Origin: Flaccisagitta enflata | Lineage: Eukaryota | Reading direction: 5' to 3' | DNA: 64,000 nucleotides | NCBI GenBank assembly: GCA_965153355.1 | Contig: OZ231126.1 | Span: 11,966,001 to 12,030,000 of the forward strand | The notes under the pieces: generated by a model | The model's database searches: none | What the model was told of the DNA's origin: nothing | What the model saw: the letters and a program-made list of their open reading frames with translations, nothing else | Shown here: piece after piece, positions 356 to 62,370 of the stretch | How positions within the stretch are numbered: position 1 is the first letter of the stretch | Layout of the letters: the number at the start of each line of letters is the position of its first letter | Program-made: the position numbers and the translations under genes

Positions 356-3300
356 CGGTAACGCGGGATCAATCAGTCCTTTGTCCATTCTCCTTTTGGG
401 AGAGTTGAAGTGGAGATATGGAAGCACTTCCGGTTTCTTCGGATCCGGATTCTGGCGTGTGTTGACGAGGAAGTCGGTCTTCAAGACTTCGGGATCTTCC
501 GGCACGAGGAAGAAGCGCGACCTGAAGCATCCCAACTCCTCAAACTCACCGTCGAAACATTTCGTCAACAGAGACCGAGTCGCTGATAGCAATTTGTTTT
601 TGTAAAACGTACAACAAAGAATGACTCAATGAATGAATGAATGAATGAATGAATGAATGAATGAATGAATGAATGAATGAATGAATGAATGAATGAATGA
701 ATGAATGAATTTATGAATGAATGAATGAATGAATAATTGAATTGATTAAGCTGATAGAGCGTGTCGACTTCTTATGTTTTTGTTCTGATCTCTTCTTATG
801 AGTCAATGGATGAGTTTATGTGTGAATGAATTACTGAATGAATGAATAATCACTAGAAAGTATAAACCATCGAATGCATGAACGAATAAACGAATGAATG
901 AATATTTGAAGGAACGGACGAATCAATCAATCAATCAATCATTCAGTGGATCAAAAAATCTGAACAGTATCTGGGTCCGCGACGGTGGGGGTTAAAGATC
1001 AATTCCATAAGATCGCTTTGACCAAAAGATCGCTAACTCTGTAAGTTTGCTAAAACTTTACATTTAGAGCCTCCGTACAAAGTTTCATGCAAATCCGTTT
1101 AAAAATGGCAAAGTTATGCACATTTTTCACTTTGAGGCTAGTAGGGTAGTTGGGTGGTAGGCTGGTTTGGATAAATAGTGCGCATATGTTGAGTTCTTCC
1201 ATTTAGAGACTCCATACCAAGTTTCAACCAAATTGGTTGAAAAATGTCCAATTTATGCAAGTTTTTCACTTTTAGACCAGTAAGCTGGTTGGGTGTTAGG
1301 TCGGTTTGGCAAGTTAGCATGCTCAAACATAAATAAATCACATATGTTAGAAATGTATGTCCGTCCGTTTCTTAAGTATGTGTGCTTTTGTTTCTTTTGC
1401 GTGCTTTGGCTTTTCCTCTTTCTCTATTATTCAATGCCAGCGTCTTTTGTTTCTCGCCATTTTTTATATTGAACGCTAGATGGGTAACCATATGGTTGCG
1501 CCTTGTATTTTGTGCCATTTGTTTTTATTACGTAGGCATACATACGTAACTCGTCTTTCGTATCATCCAATTTTTGGATTGATTGATTTTATTTATTTGC
1601 GGCATTGCTTCTTAAAGTGATTGATTGATTTTTCGTGATCGATTGAATGCGCCCTTGGAATTCACTAATTTCAATAATCTCTCATCTTTTTCTTGCAGAT
1701 AAACTTATGAACGGACAATTAACGTTAGTTTGACATCGACAGACTGTGGGTTGAAACCAACGAAAGTGGGCCTAAAAGTAAGTTTTATAGACGCGTCTTT
1801 TCTTTTATTAACGTTGTTTTTATCTTGTCTTCCGGTCTGTTATTTTTGTCTTTTGCCCTTTTGCATTTTTATCGCCGGATTTTAGTATGGTTTTTATCGC
1901 TTGCCCGATCAGCTTGCTATAGGGATGATATGGATGAATTTAATGGGATGGGCCGGGGCAGGGGCAGGTATTATCAGGTGGCATGGGCTCTGAAGAAGAT
2001 GAACATGTTGTCATGTGCTGTTTCTGTCCTTTATTGTGTCCTGTCTCGATTTCATGTTATCTTTTGCGTTTGCTGATCATCATTAACGCCCACTTTCCCT
2101 TTCATTTTTCCCCCTCTCTTCAGTTGTTGAAATTTTTATGGAATAAACGAGACGATCGCCTTCCTATTTTCCAATCGGCCAACTTTCTTTCACCACAAGT
2201 CGTCAGTCAGATAGACGCTCATAGACAGTGCCAGTTGAAACTCGTGGGCGTAATCATATTTCAACAATTTAAAAAACGACTCGACTCTTTCCATCTTCGA
2301 CCTCCGAAAACGAAATTGGACAATGGCAGCCGCGCGCAACGACGACACCGTCTCGACCGCTTCAACGTCATCTCGTGTATCTCACTTCGGTTTGAATCAG
2401 TGTCCGAGGTCGAATCGTTTGCGCGCAATGAGGAACGACATCACTGCGGAAATGGAAGGATGCCGGCGCCTTTTCGACGCCGTTTCTACTTGCACCGAAG
2501 GAACGAATGACTTCGACGACACCGCCTGTGAATCAGATGGCGCTCGACACGGCCTTCGGGATATGGTCTACGACTTTATATCGTATGCAAGGCAAATGGC
2601 GCTCGACTCGATGCCCGGCGACCCTCTTCGATTCGCGGCGTCTACTTTGCGTCGAATCCGGCGCGAATGGGACTCCATGCGTTTCTTTGATCGGGAGAAC
2701 TATCCAGAGGGTTTTCCTTCCAACGCCGACATCGTGAACGCAGTGCATAACGACATCGGGAATCGCAAAAGACCCGTCAATGAATTCTCATGGAACAGTC
2801 TCCCAACTGACACTCACGCCGCCCGTGACAATGTTACCGGCGCTCCGACTCCAAGGATGCGAACGTCTTCGCCAAACCCCGACGGATCCGAGTATCTACC
2901 ACTTCCGGTCCCGCGACATGGTGCGCAATCTCCAACTGGCGGCCAATTTTTAAATCTGCCGCCGATCCAAAGAGGAGATGCCGTCAATCAATGGGTATCA
3001 GATTTGGTCTCGGAAATTGAACCTGCGCGTGCGTCTCCGATGGAGCAAGCTGACGACATGCTTGCGGATCTCGACGACGCCGACGCTCTTGCAAGAGGCC
3101 GCGGGATCATCAACGGATTGACGCCGCAGGAGAGGGCGAGGCGACGCTTCGTCAACAGGAGTGCTGAGAGAGACAGATGGGGTAGGCAGTTGGAGGAGGA
3201 AATGCGACAAGGCCGTCGGCTGATTGACGATATGCAGCAGCAACAACGGGAGGAGGAGCAGCGACAGCAACAGGAGCAACAGCAGCATCAATTGCAGATG

Positions 3301-6300
3301 CAGCAGCAGCAACTCCAACAGCAACGTCAACTCCACCGACCACAGGAGCAGCAGCAAACGACGGCTCAACGGCAGCAGCAAGAGCTGTTGCAGCAGCAGC
3401 AGTTGCAGCAACTCCAACAATTTTGTCAACAAGATCAACAACAACATCAGATCCTGCAGCCGGCGCCACAACCTGTAGCTCAACAACAGCAACAACACGA
3501 CCAACAGCAGCAACAGCAGCAACAGCAACAACAACAAGAGCTGCGACAACATCAAACGGCAATGCAGCCGCATGAACAACAACAACAGCGGCAAAACGAT
3601 GCAGGAGAACATATGCAACAGCAACTGCAGCAGCAACAGCAACCTTCCGCCGCGATCCCAGCGGTGGTAGTGGATCCTCCAGCTTCAAATAACCATCCTG
3701 TCGAAAGCATGAACGTCAGTGAGGAGACAGAAGAAGAGAGACAGCAACGCCTTGCAGATCAACGTCTGCGCATGATGGCTGAAGGTGAAGGTGGTGGTGC
3801 AGCAACAGCTCCAAAGGCGCCGATCGCGGTGCCATTGGGATTCCAACAGCGAAGCTCATCACAAGAAGACAAAGAGTTATACGACAGAATGTGTAACTTT
3901 CGCCAGCAGCAGCAACGAGATGAAGATAGAAGAGCAGGAGTATTCAACAATGCGGCAGAAATGCAACGAAAGCACTGGAATAGCCTGAACGACGGCGGCA
4001 TTGGTGGAGCTTTAGAGCAGCGGGATGTGAAGCTTAGACAACTGTCTGAGCTGGACCAGCAGCAGCCGCAGCATCCGCCGAAAGACCGTCGATCCATCTT
4101 CAGAAATTTCAATCCGGGATTGTTCAATTCGAACATACAGCAACGTCATGTGCAGTCAGTGGAAACGTCCGTCAAGCAGCCGATGCAGCAGCAGCAACAG
4201 TTGGAGCAGCAGCAGCAGCAAGGACAGCGTCAGCGTCAACTGCAGCAGCAGAATGAACAGCAACAGCGTCCTGACCAGCAACAGCAGCTTCAACATCAAC
4301 AGTGGCAGCAGCAACGGCTTCAACAACAGCAACAGCATCAGGATCAGCATCATCAAACCCCAGCAGCAACGATTCTCCCTACCGCACCGGAAGTGATCTT
4401 CGAGAAGCAGATTGGTTCTGCTAGAAGGGAGACTGGTCTTCCCCATCAAGAGGAAAAGGTCTTCAACACAGCCGGAAGCGGAGGTGATGCAACGGAGGCG
4501 ATGCGCAGGAGGCAGAAGCAGGAGGCCGCTGACGCGAAGTTGGCACAGCAGCTGCAAGATAAAGAGAGAAGAAAAGTCGCTCCCAAGAAGACAATGAGTG
4601 GATTGCAGCCGAAGGCGCCGAAAGTAGCGCAAGCGCCTCTAGCAACGCCTCAAGCGGAAGTCATCCAGCAGAATCAACGTTTGCAGCAGGAAGTGGATAG
4701 TTTGAAGATGCAGATTCAGCAGAGAGACTTTGACCTTGCTGCAGCGAGAGCAGAAGAGAGACAACGCGAAGAAAAACAACAACAGCGACAGTACGTCCGC
4801 CAAGATTTTGATGCTCCCCGATTCCATCAAGATGATCGTCAACAACAAATGAATCAGCAAGAGGAAGTTGGGTGGAGTGTAAAAACCACCAAAAAGAGAT
4901 CTCCGGTAAAAGTCGGGGGTCAATACGCGTTTACCCAACAACCCCCAGCGTATCATCAAGTGGAGCATCATCAAGTAGCCCGTCAACCGGAAGTCCACGT
5001 TCAGATGCCCAACAATCCGGCTCTGGACAGGTTTTTGGAAAGAGCGGCGTACAATGATCTCATGCGAGCAAGGGAGGTCGGCCTCAAAGCGTTGGAGAGA
5101 GCAAGACCTGAGAAGCCTCTGCAGGAGCTTTCATCCACCGACTTCATGATGTGGAAGAGGAAGTTCAAAGATGCTGAGAAGCATGAAGGCTTGACGCAAA
5201 TGGACATCTTATTGGAATTGCCTAAGTGGTTTGCTGGTCCGGCAAAAGAGATCATTGAAACTGCGACGATTGATGCAACTGAAGCGACAGCAAGAGGAGA
5301 GATTGACGACGCCTTCGCAAAAATGGACGTCGTCTTTATGGCAAGGCGCTGCAACATTGCGGCGCTGTTCAACGAAATCGTCGCGGAGGCGAAGATCCAG
5401 TCGGCCGACCATGCAAGGCATTTCAATTTGTCTGCAAGGTTGCAAAAGGCAAAGAAGATTGCGAGGACCTGTGGAGAAGTGCAACAATGCTATCGTGACG
5501 AGCTGCTGCAGGAGATCCTCAATAAGAGGGTCCCTCATCTTGCAGATAAATTCTGGGAAAAGCAACATGAAGCAGCCCAAAATGGACAGTTATTTTCATT
5601 CGACAACTTGGTCAACATGATCGAGACTTGGGCGGTGATTCAGCGCAACAAAGGCGCAAGTTGCAAAACAGCATCAGTAGCAGCAGTTGCGACGACAGAA
5701 AAAGAGGCGCCTTCATCATATGAGGACGCCTTGACCAATGGCAAGCAAAAGGTGCAGTCGACGGACCGCTGCAACGTCTGCAGTGGAATGCATCAAACGG
5801 AAGAGTGTCATCAATTGTTAGAGTTGGAAGTGGACGCGAGAGTTCAGAAGATCATGTCTCGTCGTCTTTGCTTCCACTGCCTCGCGCCAGGTCACAACGC
5901 CAAAGGATGCGCGAACAGACCAACTTGCCAGACCTGTAAGAAGCGGCACGCGACTATTCTCCACGGGCGCACCTACAAGAAAGAAGAAAAGGAAGAGAAG
6001 AAAGGAGAAAATAAGCAGGGAAATAAAGTACCGCTGGCTCCCTTCAAAAAGTCAGAGGATGCGGCTGCAGCAGCACCAACAGCTCCGTCGACGACGGAAG
6101 CAGCCGATCCAACGGAAATAATCTCTCCTAACGCCACGGCATGACTGGCGGCGACGGCAACGTCGCGGTCCATCTCTTCATTCGACAACGTTGTCCGTCC
6201 GATCGTTCCAGTGACTATTATAAACAATTCTTCGGGTGCGCAGAGGACGATATACGCTATGATCGACTCAGGCGCTGATCGCGACGTGATCAGTACCAGT

Positions 6301-9300
6301 GTCATTCGCAGTCTTCTGATTCCAACAAAAACAGTGCAAATGACGGTAATTACTGTGGGAAGTCATGTTGTTGAGGATCGTTTCATCGCATCATTCACCA
6401 TGCAATCGGTCGGCGAGGAATATGTCGTCGACGTCAACGACGCGTTGGTGGGTGATTTGTTAACGAGTGAACGCGACATTCCTCCTTTTCTCCGCGACCT
6501 ATCTGACCAACCTCACATCAAAGGCATAAAATTTCCAGAAGCTGAAGGCGGTGTGATGATGATCATCGGAGCGGCGCATGCGGATGCCGCCGTCGCTCAA
6601 GAAATCCGCCGAGGGCCTTCAGGATCTTTGACTTGCTTCAGATGTCTATTCGGTTGGACTGTATGTGGAAAAACGGGGAAGAGAGGACGAGATATTGCAT
6701 CGATCAATGCTATCGCGACGGATGACCGCGTCCTCAACGACAACATCGATCGCATCCTCGACAATCGCGTCCTCAACAGCAACATTGACCGCATCTTCTA
6801 CCATGACTTTGCATCGTCAATCGTCTCGCAAGAGGAGATGGGTGATTCCCTGGAAAACATCAGAGCGTGCAAAATGTTAGAGGAAAAGACTTATTTTTGC
6901 CCGATTGTGGGAAAATATTTTGCTCCCGTCACATGGAAATTTCATCACGACAAAATCATGGAAATTCTGAGAAGAGTGAAGTCACGACCTACTGCGATGA
7001 AGCGGCTCGCCAACCAACGCTTCCGCTTCAAACGTGATCCAGCCTTTAAAGAAAGAGTCTTCCGTGAGATCGAGAAATTTTACGAGACGGGAGTGGCGAT
7101 TGAGATCAACAGCGTCGACGACGACGACAGCATTGAAAAGCCGCGCTGGTACTTACCACTTCACGTTGTGGAATTGCGCGGTAAAACGCGCGTATGCCAC
7201 GATGCGCGTGCGGCGACCGACGGGATCTCACTCAATGATTTGCTCGTCGGGGGTCCAAACTTGATGAATAGCTTGATGGACATCCTCATGCGTTTTCGTC
7301 AGTGGAAAATCGCCTTTATGTGTGATATAAAGGCGTTTTTCCACCAGATCCGCGTCCATCCTGACGACGCTGATCTGTTCAGATTCTTTTGGTTCAAAGA
7401 TCGTACTCTACGGGAAGCAATTTTGAATCTGTTCTTATCTCATGTCTTCGGCAGCCAATCCAGCTCATTCGTCACATCTTTCACCGTCAGAAAGCATGCT
7501 GAAGTAATCCGGCCCAAATATCCCTACAACGTCTACGATCTTATTCGCTACGGCTTCTACGTCGACGACGGAAGTGGGGGTGGGGATTCGGTCGACGAAG
7601 CACTGCAGCTGAAGGTGGATTCAGTGGCGGCGATGGCTGAAGGCGGGATGGACCTTGTGAAATGGAAGAGTAATGCGCGGCAATTGATGGATGGAGATCC
7701 AAACGTTCCAATCCCCATCTCAGATAAGCAAGATGATGCGCCGACGAAGGTGTTGGGCGTCTCATGGCTTCCGGCGGAAGACGTCTTTATCTTCATCTGC
7801 GACGAAGAATTCAAAACTCTTAGAGCAAAAACACCTCGTCAATTGGTCTCCATGCAAGCCAAACTTTATGATCCATTGGGATTTTGGAGCCCAAGCGCAT
7901 ATATCGGCAGACGACATCTTCAACTCTGTCGTCCACAGGAAGTGGGATGGGATTCGCCCTTGGAAGAGAGCGTCGAGGAATCCTTCTTCCGCTACACTTC
8001 ATCTTGGCCTCTTCTACAACAATACCGAATTGAACGCTGGTGGAATGGCGGCGTCGACAACAGCGACATTGCGGAAATCACAATTGAGATCTTTTGCGAT
8101 GCGGCTCCAAAAGGCGGATATGGAGCAGTTGCATATCGACGTCAAGTCAATCGAGATGGAGGTGTTCACATTTCATTCATTGCCTCCAAATCTCACGTCA
8201 TTCCACTCAATCCAAAACGTGCTTCTCATCACAACAGCGTTCCACGCGTCGAGATTGTATCCGCAGAAAAAGCAGTGCAGCTCAAACGCTTCGTCGGAAG
8301 GACCATCGACTTGGACAATCTTGTCGTAAGATTTTGGTCTGATTCTGAATCTGCACTGAAGATGATTTACAATCCGGCGAAACCGAGGCCTGTATTTTTC
8401 GCCAATCGTCTCTCCAAGATCCATAGTGGGTCTGATCCTCAACAGTGGCGCTGGGTTGACTCGTCAAACAACCCGGCGGACCACTGTAGCAGAGGCATCC
8501 AGGCCCATGAAGCCGAAAAATGGCGTCAATTCCATCACGGTCCCGCATTTTTGCGTCTTCCCGAAGATCAATGGCCAAAGACGAACATCGCGACGTGCCC
8601 TATTTCTGCACAAGTCGCCGCATTGTATGTGGCTGAAAGTGAAAAGAAACAAGTGGCTGACGCGATACTTCTTGCAGCAGCTTCTCGGGGAAAATGGATG
8701 CATAAGTTGCGGATCATCGGCATGGTTCTTATCGCAGTCAAAAGGTGGAGAGCGTATCCAAGGGCGAAGACACGAGCAGCAAAGGATCTCCTTCCTAAAC
8801 CGGAAGTGACGCAAGACGTTTTGGAGGAGGCGCGCAAACAGCTCGTCAAGTCAATGCAGCGGCATCATTATTCCGACGTCTTCGAACAATTGGAGTTGGG
8901 AAAAGTCTTTAAACCAGAAAGCCGTCATGACTTCATCATAAAAATAAGGAGATGCGAAACTGGAATCCTTTACCGACGACGACGGTATCCTTCGCGTCGG
9001 CAGCCGATTGGAAAACGCCGACATCGCACATGACGCTAAATTTCCCTTCATCCTGCCGCCAAAAGACGAGAATGTGAAATCATTAATTCGCCATTATCAT
9101 CATAATGATTTTCACGCGGGTGCAAAGCATACATTGTGCCAATTACGCCAATTTGTGTGGATTACAAAAGGTCTTCAGGCTGTCAAGAGCGTCGTCAACA
9201 CGTGCTTCAGATGCCAGAAGAACTTTAAAAAGAACGCAAATCAGCAAATGGCCAATCTTCCATCAAATCGCGTCAATCCTGCGCCTGTCTTTGCAGAGAC

Positions 9301-12300
9301 TGGATTGGATGTCATGGGGCATTTCCTAGTTAAAATGAACGGGCGTGCTGATCATAAGGTGTGGATCGCAGTGTTCACCTGTTTCGTGTCACGCGCCGTC
9401 CATGTGGAATTGCTCTTCAACATGTCAGCCGATGCGATGGTAAATGCAATCATCCGCTTTGCAGCAAGGCGCCCAGGAATCCGCCGATTCACGTCAGATT
9501 GCGGAACGAATCTAGTTGGCGCCAATAATATCCTCAAGAAGGAAATGGAAGCTTGGAACCGCTCGTCAACTTCCGAATTGCAGCGGCGCGGCCTTCGGTG
9601 GGATTCATCACGCCGAGAACACCCCACTATGGAGGGGTGTGGAGAAATCGTCTCTCTTTTTAAGCGCCATCTTGCTTCCATCTCGACTGGCGCCATCCTC
9701 CACGCCGACGCCTTCAACACTGCCGTTGTCGAAGTTGAAGGAATTCTCAATCGCCGTCCTCTGACAGCGCTCAGCGATGATCCAAATGACTCTGAGGCCC
9801 TCACACCGAATCATATCCTCAATCCATCAACATCCGGTCACGTCCTCTAGATCTGGTGCAACAAGGCGTCAACTCTGACGCCGACTCGCGAAGATTCAAT
9901 GGAGGCGTGCGCAATCGCGTGTGGATGCGTTTTGGAAATCGTGGAGGGTCGAATATTTGCCGCTTCTTCACGCGCGAAGCAAATGGTCGAGATCCGAGAA
10001 AGACTTTGCGGTTGATGACATGGTCATCGTCATGGACGAAACGCTGCCTCGTCACAATTGGAGTTAGGACGTGTCATGGGCGTCGCGGGATCGTCAGCCC
10101 GTCCGGAGGGCTCACATCCGGCGCCAAGATGGAAAGATCGTGACGAAAGACCGCACGGCTCGTGCGGCTGGAATTGGACTCATAAAAAACGCTAAGTTTT
10201 GAGAGAGAGAGAAAAAGGCGCATGGGCCTGTCCATTAGTAACTATAGATATGAGTGATTGAAACTCTGACTTGTTATATTTACAAAGAGTTGTTATTATT
10301 CATATTTGGTTCTGATTATCCATGCTTTCATCTTTCCTCTTGTCAATTATGTTGTCCATTTCCACTTACACAAAAACACTGATTCATTCGCTCTGTCTAT
10401 ATGTACATATTATTGTGCCAAAATCCGTTCTTACCATTATCAGTTCTCATTACGAACATTTCAAAGCTTCCGCTGACGACGTCATTCCATCTACGAAGTC
10501 AGTTCGCATCTTGAAGTCGCTCGTCGGAGTCAAGATGTCCCGTCAGCAGCGTCTCGAGGCCGAAGCCGACGTGTCGACGTCGTACGGATCCTTGGATCTC
10601 CATCGACTCTTCAACGACGGCTCGACTCGAGAAGGATCTGCATCCACGACGTCGTTCGGGGCGGAGGAGGAGTGCTGTCGTGCTGGTACCAATGGCGACC
10701 TTCTGCCCACGTGAGACGCAAAAATGGCGAATAAAAAGCGTCAACAAGATGATGCGTTGGTGAATCGTCAACAGCCATCCAACGCCGTTGATCCTGCGTC
10801 GCTTCCTCCATTGGTGGTCATCAGAGATGGAGGTTCGAGGCGGATCTCGATCAATCGGCCGCCGACGGACTTATCCACCACTGCCGCGGCGGCGTCATCA
10901 TCATCGGATTTACCCCCATCGCCTCGCCGATCCGGCCTTGATTTCGGTCGCCCAGCGTCTCGTGATCAAGCGCCTGCAGCTGCATGTCAACGCAGCGGGG
11001 GCGAAGAGAGAGAGAGATCGGTCAATGATGGAGCAAGAGTGGAGGAGGAGGGGGTGGAAACAGAGGAGGAGGTGTTAGTGAATGGGGAGGCGGTGGAGAA
11101 AGACATTGACCCGGAAGTGGACACATGTATCGCCGGAAGAGAAACACCAACGGATGCAGGCACGTTGGTGGTATCGCATCATCAGGTCCGACGCCGGAGT
11201 CTCTCCTCTTCAAAGAGTTTGGAAAACTTTCAGTAAAGGCAACAAACAAACTCTCCGCGCTCATCGGCTAATCAAACAGAGCTTGGCTCGGAGACTCTGG
11301 AGCGCAAAATCCAAAGTAATAAAAGAAGGAGGGAGCATGATAAGTATGTTCGCCGCATTGTCCAGGCGACGAAGAGGAAGAATGCGGCTCCGGCCTCTGG
11401 ATGCAACTGCACTTTCATCTGCAGCAAATTCGCCGACGCTTCCGCAACTCCACCAGCGGTATTTGTGCTCGACGCAGCCGCAGCTACATCAGCGGCAATT
11501 CACTCTACAGCATCAGGAAGTCGCCAATCGCGCCCTGGATTGGTTCATCCCCCAAATCAGCAGCAACACAGGGTCCTCGTGATTACCCCTCACAACAGTC
11601 GAAGAGAGATCACGTCGGGGAAAGACTCCACAAACGCGTAATGTGCCGAGTCAACAGTGTGGGCCAGATTCCAAAAGCAAAGGCCCCTTCAAGCGCCTCC
11701 AAGCGCGCCCTCTGAGCAGTACGCCCAAAGGCCAGGAGAAGCTTCGTGGTTCGTCGACGGCAACGTTGGCAGCAACCCAGAAGCTGAATCAGGCTGCCTG
11801 GGGCAGCGGCAGCAAAGGGAAGAAGACCAAGAGAGCTGGGAAGAAGCATAAAGCAGCAACCAAGGGAGGTTCTACTTGCGGTGCTTCGGCGCCCGCTGTT
11901 AAACCTCAAGTCTCTGGTCAGCAGACGGGAGCGTCTTCCTTTCACCCGCAGCCATCAAAAGCAGCGGTGAAGAACTAGTTGGCGGTGCTTCAGCATCTGT
12001 TAAAGCTGGTGTAGCGCCTCGTCAGCAAACCAGTCTGCCAAGGTCTGCAGCAAGTGCAGAACCCGCTCCCTCGTCGGATCCAGCCTTTGATCCTGCGCAT
12101 GGACACACATCGCCGAGTCATTGCTACGAGAAGCCTCTTCACTGACCTCAAACGCTCCATTGGGTGTGGTGAAGAATTTAGCATCAAGGCTTCCGAAAGA
12201 CTTCTTCGCGTCGCTTAATCCGCGTCAACGAGTTGAAGCGGCTCGTCAAGTCTTAGACGAGAGGATTCGTCGCAACATCCAAAAGGAGAGAGACGATGCT

Positions 12301-15300
12301 CGTCAGCAGCAATGGCTGCGGACAATGAGGTGGTCAAAGGCAATAAGCGAGTCGTGGAACTGGAGAAGCAGCTTGAAAAGGAGAAGCAGGCCTGTGCGAT
12401 GAAGGCTAAGAAGAAAGAGGAAGCCGTGGAACGCGCAAAGGCGGCTATGGCCGTCGACTTTAAAACTGCGTCCGCTGTGCGCCCCATTTCGACTGGCGCC
12501 GAATTGCGATGCAGCATCTCCACCTCCAGCGTCTTCTCCTGCAGAAGAAAAGTCGGTCAGCAGATCCTGTCGCAAAAGACGCTCCCAAGCCTGGAAATAA
12601 GAAAAATCGAACCAGGCCTTGGAAAATCAGACCGCCAGTTAAACACTGATTGGTGCCACGCAGTTGCTGTTCAATTTAACTACGAATTTGCAACATGGCG
12701 TGGAGAGCGCCGCCATTCGCTGAGGATCGTATTCCACCATCACATCCTCATCCCATCGATGGACAGGCCGGCCAAGTCGGGGGCGCTACCGGGCGTGGGG
12801 AATGACGTCCGCCGGGGCCTGCGAAAACGCCCGCAGTATCATGGTTTGGGAAGGGTTGAGGTTGAGTTTTTGTGGTAAATTTGAATCTGTGTACGATAAG
12901 AACTTTACTAATCAATCTGCCCCATTTTTTTCTCTTTCTTTCTTCCTTCGGGAGGACATATTCTCAGACGGCTGCACCACCTGCTTTCGATGCGGTCGCC
13001 GTTGACGACTTCATTCATCGCCTTCGCCCACGGATTGACGAGGTGTTGGAGCCCCGAATGACCCGCTCGTCTCTGTAATGGAGAAGGCGCAGGTGATGTG
13101 GTCGTTCCATGATGCTTGCTGTTTTTTTTTTACCTTACAGATTCGTTTTTATATATAGTTAGTAACTTATTTATTTTGTCTTGTTTTGTTTGGTTCCTTG
13201 GAACATGTACATTTTTGTTTTGTTTGTTTTAGACATGGTCTTTTTAGTCATTATTACGAATACTTTCGTATGACATGTTTTAGTAGTATGCCCCTACTCA
13301 TTATTTTCCACTCTTAAGTCAAATCCCAGGCTTGAGTGCTCAGGTCGTTCCCCTTTCCCTCATCTCCTAACTTTTACAGAGCGGGTGCCTCAACCTCCTC
13401 CTCGCCGCCTCGTCTCCATCCCGTCATCGTGATGGTTGAAAATTTGCTGGTGGTGGATCCTTTCCGGACGGGAATCATCATTCGTGCAGTCATCGATCTG
13501 TTGATAGTTAGGGTGGGACAAGAGGCGGTGGACGAGGGGCAGGGGCTGTGTGTAAATTTTTTAAGGAAGGTAGTATCGGTTTTTAGCAGGGTTTCCGACT
13601 GGAAACTAGGTGTTTGATTTTTGAAATTCGTGAAATTCCAAAATGGGGCAGAATGTTAGAAATGTATGTCCGTCCGTTTCTTAAGTATGTGTGCTTTTGT
13701 CTTTTATGCTTTTGGCTTTTCCTCTTTCTCTATTATTCAATGCCAGCGTCTTTTTGTTTCGCCATTTTTATATTGACGCTAGATGGGTAACCATATGGTT
13801 GCGCCTTGTATTTTGTGCCATTTGTTTTTATTACGTAGGCATACATACGTAACTCGTCTTTCGTATCATCCAATTTTTGGATTGATTGATTTTATTTATT
13901 TGCGGCATTGCTTCTTAAAGTGATTGATTGATTTTTCGTGATCGATTGAATGCGCCTGGAATCACCACTTTCAATAATCTCTCATCTTTTTCTTGCAGAT
14001 AAACTTATGAACGGACAATTAACGTTAGTTTGACATCGACAGACTGTGGGTTGAAACCAACGAAAGTGGGCCTAAAAGTAAGTTTTATAGACGCGTCTTT
14101 TCTTTTATTAACGTTGTTTTTATCTTGTCTTCCGGTCTGTTATTTTTGTCTTTTGCCCTTTTGCATTTTTATCGCCGGATTTTAGTATGGTTTTTATCGC
14201 TTGCCCGATCAGCTTGCTATAGGGATGATATGGATGAATTTAATGGGATGGGCCGGGGCAGGGGCAGGTATTATCAGGTGGCATGGGCTCTGAAGAAGAT
14301 GAACATGTTGTCATGTGCTGTTTCTGTCCTTTATTGTGTCCTGTCTCGATTTCATGTTATCTTTTGCGTTTGCTGATCATCATTAACGCCCACTTTCCCT
14401 TTCATTTTTCCCCCTCTCTTCAGTTGTTGAAATTTTTATGGAATAAACGAGACGATCGCCTTCCTATTTTCCAATCGGCCAACTTTCTTTCACCACAAGT
14501 CGTCAGTCAGATAGACGCTCATAGACAGTGCCAGTTGAAACTCGTGGGCGTAATCATAACATACATGTGTTGAGTTCTTCCATTTGGAGACTCCATACCA
14601 AATTTCAACCAAATTGGTTGAAAAACGCCAAAGATATGCACATTTTTCACTTCTAGGCTGGTAGGCTGGTTTGGTGGTAGGCTGGTTTGACAGGATAAAT
14701 AGTGTGCATATGTTGAGTTCTTCTATCTAGAGACTCCATACTAAGTTTCAACCAAATTAGTTGAAAAATGACAAAGTTATGCAAGTTTTTCACTTTTTGG
14801 TCGGTAGGCTGGTTGGGTGGTAGGTCGGTTTGGCCAGTTAGCATGCTCAAATGCATATGAATCATATACATATGTTGAGTCCTTCCATTTAGAGACTCCA
14901 TACAGTGGGGTTCGTGGAATAACAGCCTAAACTGGAGGAAGGTATTTAAGTGTCTTAATTTCATTTGACAAACTTGATATTTGAAATATAAGTTGTTCAC
15001 TTGATGCTTTTGTTGCTATGGAAACCAAAATTATTTTTTCAAACATTTATAACCACTAAAATACCAATATTTTGAAAAATATTGTCAGGGAACATTGCTC
15101 AAAATTAAATTTGCTACAACTTTCCCACAGTATGTCCTGTAAGAATATTGCTCGTTTAGCCGTTGCCAGGGAGCATCATTTAGCGGTTGCTAGGTGTGAT
15201 GCCCCCTAGCAACGGCCAAACGAGCAATATTCTTACAGAACATACTGTGGGAAAGTTGTAGCAAATTTAATTTTGAGCAATATTCCCTGAAAACATTTCT

Positions 15301-16156: not shown

Positions 16157-62370
<46,214 letters not shown>

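Follow-up and report, generated by a model that had tools for sequence, protein, structure and literature searches.

Priming is one of the few steps at which long terminal repeat (LTR) retroelements depend on a host RNA, and self-priming removes this dependence. To our knowledge, self-priming has been shown experimentally only for the Tf1 group so far, and is predicted for some gypsy and copia lineages. In Tf1 the RNA's first 11 bases pair with the primer-binding site, and cleavage by RNase H falls between bases 11 and 12 (PMC7175516); self-priming of Tj1 was predicted from the same complementarity (PMC4600332). Predictions have also been made for the Tcn1 clade of Ty3/gypsy and for the TAR lineage of Ty1/copia, the criterion being a complementarity of at least 10 bp that starts 0–5 bp after the 5′ LTR (PMC6317226). 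In half-transfer RNA (half-tRNA) priming of Ty1/copia elements, the priming site corresponds to the anticodon region of tRNA-Met or tRNA-Ile (PMC6317226). [quoted passage not shown] Here we describe a BEL/Pao element of 13,214 bp from Flaccisagitta enflata, which spans 1345–14558 of a window of 64,000 nt (assembly GCA_965153355.1, contig OZ231126.1, positions 11,966,001 to 12,030,000 of the forward strand; all positions below are those of the window). The best single explanation for the sequence around the end of its 5′ LTR is that minus-strand DNA synthesis is primed by the element's own RNA in a Tf1-like manner, a reading to which we give about an even chance.

Complementarity across the LTR edge

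The features on which this reading draws are the following.

1345–2258, plus strand: 5′ LTR of 914 nt, TGT...ATA, delimited by LTR alignment, blastn and the divergence of contigs of run X1
2111–2286, plus strand: conserved block of 176 nt over the inferred repeated (R) and unique 5′ (U5) regions and the priming site, from the X1 substitution list
2119–2124, plus strand: initiator-like TCAGTT from the motif scan, with A2122 as the proposed first RNA base
2122–2132, plus strand: upstream arm AGTTGTTGAAA, the proposed self-primer, pairing with 2259–2269
2142–2147, plus strand: AATAAA from the motif scan, the sole poly(A) signal of the LTR, with R predicted to end about 10–30 nt downstream
2234–2240, plus strand: second GTTGAAA, seen in the sequence, in U5, an arm of a competing 7-bp stem
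2259–2269, plus strand: downstream arm TTTCAACAATT, the first 11 nt after the 5′ LTR, at the position of a primer-binding site
13640–13653, plus strand: polypurine-rich tract AAAATGGGGCAGAA abutting the 3′ LTR, its presumed role judged from position
13654–14558, plus strand: 3′ LTR of 905 nt from alignment and blastn, with AGTTGTTGAAA again at 14422–14432

What is directly seen is the anatomy of the element, a complementarity whose register matches the LTR edge exactly, the missing TGG-type site, and two arms that are conserved from copy to copy. The arms 2122–2132 and 2259–2269 form 11 consecutive pairs, one of them a G–U pair (G2123/T2268), and 12 when A2258/T2133 is included; the perfect Watson–Crick run is 10 bp long (2124–2133 with 2258–2267). 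The downstream arm lies at offset 0 from the LTR, and the upstream arm 137 nt before the LTR end and 20 nt before AATAAA. The edge itself is placed at A2258 by the alignment of the two LTRs, which stops there, and independently by the X1 DNA contigs, which diverge behind 2258. As in Tf1, the roughly 10–11 nt directly after the 5′ LTR are thus complementary to a stretch inside the 5′ LTR, and the arrangement comes close to the published criterion, the perfect 10-bp run beginning one base inside the LTR. In the whole 13.2-kb element, the only sites complementary to the 11-mer are the arm at 2122 and its 3′ LTR counterpart at 14422, with one further site, at 6367, for the 10-mer version. Since the duplex starts at the first post-LTR base and the polypurine tract abuts the 3′ LTR, both LTR edges coincide with putative primer junctions. 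A GTTGAAA is also found deep in the unique 3′ (U3) region, at 1750–1756, and the complement of this motif opens the post-LTR sequence.

TCAGT is an initiator consensus motif. The motif scan of the LTR found a single AATAAA (2142), no TATAA, and TCAGT only at 2120 and 2203, and the upstream arm starts at the A of the sole TCAGT that lies upstream of AATAAA. The indications that this arm is the 5′ end of the RNA are two, namely the initiator-like TCAGTT and the position 20 nt before AATAAA. An RNA start at the second TCAGT (2203) or at the second CAGTT (2232) was considered and rejected, both lying downstream of the only AATAAA. A first-pass annotation of this DNA had proposed the pairing of 11 nt with one G–U (12 nt with A2258/T2133), a TCAGTT start at A2122, 20 nt upstream of AATAAA, and the absence of TGG next to the LTR; its coordinates for both arms, TCAGTT, AATAAA and GTTGAAA all proved correct on the sequence, the pairing is as it had been given, and the first TGG after the LTR is at 2317–2319.

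In the proposed mechanism, the 5′ LTR would give rise to a transcript that begins at A2122 or no more than a few bases away from it, and the first 9–11 nt of the RNA would fold back over R–U5 (about 137 nt) and pair with 2259–2269. The RNase H of the element would then cleave the RNA where the duplex ends, between 2132 and 2133, and the new 3′ end would be extended through U5 and R, whereby the LTR end would be set exactly at A2258.

How often such a match arises by chance was estimated on shuffled and on real sequence. A stem of at least 11 bp at offset 0 occurs in 1.36% of 5000 dinucleotide shuffles of the LTR, and in 0.18% if the arm has to lie in the last 200 nt. Among real window positions, with at most one G–U pair, 859 of 55070 (1.56%) have such a stem within the 914 nt upstream and 284 (0.52%) within 200 nt; when any number of G–U pairs is admitted, the shares are 4.6% and 1.3%, respectively. 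The match is therefore real and unlikely by chance, but not decisive alone, and as a sequence feature it is suggestive rather than diagnostic.

The site after the LTR is not of the TGG type. No TGG is found within 58 nt after the 5′ LTR, and the first one (2317–2319), 59 nt downstream, was rejected as a displaced tRNA site on account of this distance from the LTR edge and of its overlap with the start of gag. By comparison, a TGG-type site lies 0–1 nt after the LTR in all five distant BEL/Pao loci in which the junction or a TGGT motif is visible, that is in L011, L012 and L015, where both LTRs are present, and in L007 and L013, which were recognized by a TGGTCC motif upstream of gag. In L011, the 11 nt at 7612–7622 (LTR positions 23–33) are complementary to the locus's own TGG-type site; this segment resembles the 3′ end of the tRNA which that site would bind, and may be there by chance or as a masking element. 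In the element described here, the 11-mer has a G/C content of 2 in 11, and its next 8 nt are nearly all A/T. Such a composition, with an A/T run behind it, sets the 11-mer apart from cytosolic tRNA segments, and because only 2 of 11 bases are G or C, the end of the would-be primer appears unlike a cytosolic tRNA by base composition. A scan of 1300–2500 with Rfam gave only a chance-level snoRNA match (E 0.25).

Conservation, folding and rival primers

The family is a recently active, very high-copy BEL/Pao retrotransposon, with 6693 contig pieces of run X1 at 90–100% likeness (1841 at 99% or above, 2593 at 95–99% and 2259 at 90–95%), and it turns up in runs from 11 studies, marine metagenomes and metatranscriptomes among them. 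Substitution sites were listed only if they reached a share of at least 5% among the X1 contig pieces. None of the 31 sites listed for 1802–2600 falls within 2111–2286, where 6.8 are expected (P 4.5e-4); for the LTR part of the block alone, P is 0.02. The block extends from 11 nt before 2122 to 17 nt past the downstream arm, and rare single-base insertions or deletions in or at it (2119, 2253 and 2271) touch neither arm. Between 2043 and 2105, no X15 metatranscriptome contig matches at 90% likeness or above, while both sides are covered; the stretch immediately before the conserved block may be different in the copies of that sample.

This conservation bears on the idea that the post-LTR site is merely the decayed or mutated primer-binding site of dead copies, devoid of function. 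The copy in the window is indeed defective in pol and in the third open reading frame (ORF), as such decay would have it. However, its LTRs are 98% identical, the family is represented by thousands of X1 contig pieces and in the runs of 11 studies, and no substitution is listed for the first 28 nt behind the LTR, against 21 sites in the next 280 nt, so that decay is a very improbable account of the site.

Folding was computed for an RNA that starts at 2122, and thus presupposes the start that is itself in question. In this model RNA the helix between the 5′ end and the primer-binding site is present in the minimum-energy and in the centroid structure, where it closes the R–U5 domain with pair probabilities of 0.83–0.89, and in the minimum-energy fold it is extended by a second short helix (2136–2140 with 2249–2253). 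The duplex alone has −10.5 kcal/mol, as against −6.8 kcal/mol for the competing stem 2234–2240/2259–2265. The first-pass annotation had suggested that this competing stem could act as a switch between U5 and the primer-binding site. The suggestion did not survive the folding, as the pair probabilities of the stem are 0.0 in the model RNA and forcing it costs 2.5 kcal/mol (−26.7 versus −29.2), and the switch was rejected.

Two contigs from RNA libraries touch the region, and both were weighed neither for nor against self-priming. The X15 contig covers 2106–2275, from 16 nt upstream of 2122 through the primer-binding site; contigs cannot show ends, and this one is compatible with an upstream start, with library DNA or with an assembly join through R. 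The X17 contig (1917–2254) runs into a foreign flank and may be DNA or read-through.

Several observations weigh against self-priming or limit the case for it. Of the five BEL/Pao loci that carry a tRNA-type site and served as controls, one (L011) also has an 11-bp stem at offset 0, the remaining four having stems of 5–8 bp, and GTTGAAA occurs three times in the 914-nt LTR (1750–1756, 2126–2132 and 2234–2240), so that the motif may have another role. The fold as a whole is no more stable than those of shuffled sequences (z −0.87 for the 154 nt of 2122–2275, +0.90 for 209 nt). No read out of 12,162,974 raw poly(A) RNA reads of X22 mapped, a sample which at about 6% of the run is too small to test the RNA start. 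Neither the window nor 16 metagenome loci gave a tRNA with ARAGORN, and a tRNA fragment as primer is argued against from base composition alone. Both arms are invariant within the family, which therefore provides no evidence from covariation. Sister families are known as proteins, whose pol identity is 76%, 51% and, at the lowest, 36%; among the 34 loci of the metagenome scan the only close ones are L001 (a pol-only piece of 1151 nt at 98%) and L002 (a pol-only contig at 41%), none with a 5′ end, and no sister-family DNA was found in viral and genome collections. The G2123/T2268 wobble is likewise kept in at least 95% of copies, with no variant at a share of 5% or above at 2268 or at 2123. In the general model of reverse transcription, as for Tf1, plus-strand DNA copies the whole primer. 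A full 11-nt primer is disfavoured on this ground, because progeny should then often carry C at 2268, and no such variant reaches 5%. Better fits to the wobble than a primer of the full 11 nt would be one of about 9 nt, an RNA start a few bases downstream of 2122, or the absence of self-priming.

The persistent wobble is what would be expected of a site that is set by a foreign primer. Priming in trans by a host RNA has to be weighed, in which case an internal or half-tRNA fragment, as in copia, or a small RNA ending in UUGUUGAAA would bind the site, and the match to 2122–2132 would be due to chance or serve another role. Half-tRNA priming does exist in Ty1/copia lineages (PMC6317226), and an 11-bp match is expected by chance at about 1.5% and was met with in one of five controls. 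Chance would, however, have to provide not only the length but also a location immediately upstream of the poly(A) signal, within the conserved block; moreover, TGG is lacking, and with 2 G/C in 11 and nearly only A/T in the next 8 nt the site is unlike a cytosolic tRNA. We regard a host primer as possible but doubtful.

A different role for the helix is also conceivable, in that it could be a long-range structural stem which closes R–U5 and hides or presents the priming site, regulating priming, dimerisation or packaging, while something else is the primer. Such a stem would resemble the retroviral U5-leader and U5-IR stems, and the high predicted probability of the helix, its extension by 2136–2140/2249–2253 and the conservation of the entire R–U5–primer-binding-site block are in line with it. 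L011, which has a complement of its own tRNA-type site, illustrates that complements of this kind can coexist with tRNA priming. A structural stem would still require a separate primer for a site without TGG, and the duplex ends exactly at the LTR edge, as a primer junction predicts and as mere structure need not, so that we consider this account unlikely.

Self-priming would mean that a BEL/Pao lineage of a marine planktonic animal gave up tRNA priming and now primes with the first 9–11 nt of its own RNA, a statement that we judge to be evenly balanced between right and wrong.

Anatomy of the element and its surroundings

Besides the features around the priming site, the element and its flanks comprise the following.

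1340–1344, no strand: left copy of the target-site duplication ACATA, the same 5 nt standing directly outside the 3′ LTR
2323–6144, plus strand: gag ORF, glutamine-rich, with zinc knuckles near its end, from translation (ATG at 2323, TGA at 6142–6144)
6145–10157, plus strand: pol, in the gag frame, with protease, reverse transcriptase, RNase H and integrase (Pfam PF05380, PF17921 and PF00665)
10535–12625 (about), plus strand: third ORF, broken in this copy, its pieces mapped by intact database proteins
14559–14563, no strand: right copy of ACATA, adjoining the 3′ LTR

The LTR pair is 98.1% identical (blastn of 1345–2258 versus 13654–14558, with which the alignment agrees), and the differences cluster in two small patches with insertions or deletions. 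Pol begins with a DSG protease motif in translation and contains Peptidase_A17 of the Pao family (PF05380) at E 1.5e-28, above the cut-off, which bears out the assignment to BEL/Pao made in the first-pass annotation. A weak match to RVT_1 is present as well, and Integrase_H2C2 and rve follow downstream in another frame. The closest relatives are BEL/Pao polyproteins, 90 proteins being found at E 0.001 or better, most of them with PF05380, and the order of protease, reverse transcriptase, RNase H and integrase between LTRs flanked by a target duplication is that of BEL/Pao, so that by sequence the element belongs to BEL/Pao (Belpaoviridae).

The copy is young yet defective, as its integrase part shifts frame twice despite the 98% identity of the LTRs. 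The frame changes of pol lie near 8943–8957 and 9841–9891, where tblastn of the relatives P0001–P0010 gives three pieces. The TGA that closes gag (6142–6147) is followed by pol in the same frame, with CTG as the next codon, which looks like expression of pol by stop-codon read-through rather than by a frameshift. A stop codon after gag is present in Tj1, and stop-codon read-through is reported for Tj1 and for type C retroviruses (PMC4600332). The third ORF is intact elsewhere, namely in four database proteins (P0091–P0094) of 703–710 amino acids at 86–91% identity. Being of low complexity, with neither a Pfam family nor a hydrophobic segment, it does not look like an envelope gene; a search of the ESM Atlas with 12237–12875 gave nothing at 0.9 or above.

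Gag contains long glutamine-rich stretches at 3400–4400 that derive from CAA/CAG repeats and cross-match microsatellites at 1–360, 16600–17050 and 26570–27460. The insertion site is an array of tandem repeats of about 140 nt, which lies on both sides of the element (1058–1344 and 14564–14903) at about 72–85% identity. Neither a second copy nor a solo LTR nor any other LTR element was found in the window. It does contain an inverted repeat measuring about 560 nt, its arms 77% identical and separated by 15 kb (22272–22787 versus 37810–38370), and more inverted pairs (19077–20456 with 49779–50285).

Comparison with known priming systems

A literature search, in which subscription journals were thinly covered and supplementary tables of priming sites lay outside the search, found no paper that links self-priming with BEL/Pao, in agreement with the first-pass annotation, whose author knew of no described case. 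The main text of a BEL/Pao survey makes no mention of a primer site (PMC3118150). The first-pass annotation had also given self-priming as described for the Tf1/sushi group of Ty3/gypsy, a scope that needs widening, given the predictions for the Tcn1 clade and the TAR lineage (PMC6317226). If the reading is true, the element would be the first case of self-priming found in BEL/Pao, and a known mechanism would extend to a third superfamily. All three superfamilies of LTR retrotransposons would then have evolved or retained self-priming, the switch to it would be shown to be easy and recurrent, and the family-level statement of tRNA priming for Belpaoviridae would need an exception. It would also be relevant to the proposal of hairpin priming as the ancestral state of LTR elements (PMC3601003), and would be a warning for annotation pipelines that seek tRNA-type sites in animal elements. 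Given the high abundance of the family in its host and its occurrence in runs of 11 studies, the material for a test of the RNA 5′ end exists.

With canonical BEL/Pao elements (Semotivirus), the element shares the gene order, the Pao-type domain, the integrase, LTRs with a 5-bp duplication and the polypurine tract. It differs from them in lacking a TGG-type site, in its length of 13.2 kb, in the third ORF of about 700 codons and in the LTR end ATA. Measured against the ICTV profile, the 13,214 bp exceed the range of 4.2–10 kb, and in place of the 18-nt tRNA-type site there is no TGG within 58 nt, a feature that is descriptive and not a phylogenetic criterion (PMC8742986). Half-tRNA-primed Ty1/copia elements likewise have sites without TGG, the primer there not being a tRNA 3′ end (PMC6317226), but the A/T-rich 11-mer found here would, by its base composition, be unlike a tRNA stem. 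The predicted cases in the Tcn1 clade and the TAR lineage were recognized by the same kind of sequence-only criterion (PMC6317226); they are from plants and fungi, belong to the other two superfamilies and share the feature across whole lineages, whereas here it is seen in a single family. Closest in form are Tf1 and Tf2 of Schizosaccharomyces pombe and Tj1 of S. japonicus, which have the same duplex length and the same adjacency to the LTR. They are Ty3/gypsy elements, while the element described here is a BEL/Pao element of an animal host, is known from sequence alone and has one G–U pair in the duplex. Membership in the Tf1/sushi group, defined by the clustering of reverse transcriptase and integrase, does not apply, as pol is that of BEL/Pao; by analogy, the element may thus work like Tf1 without being a member of the Tf1/sushi group.

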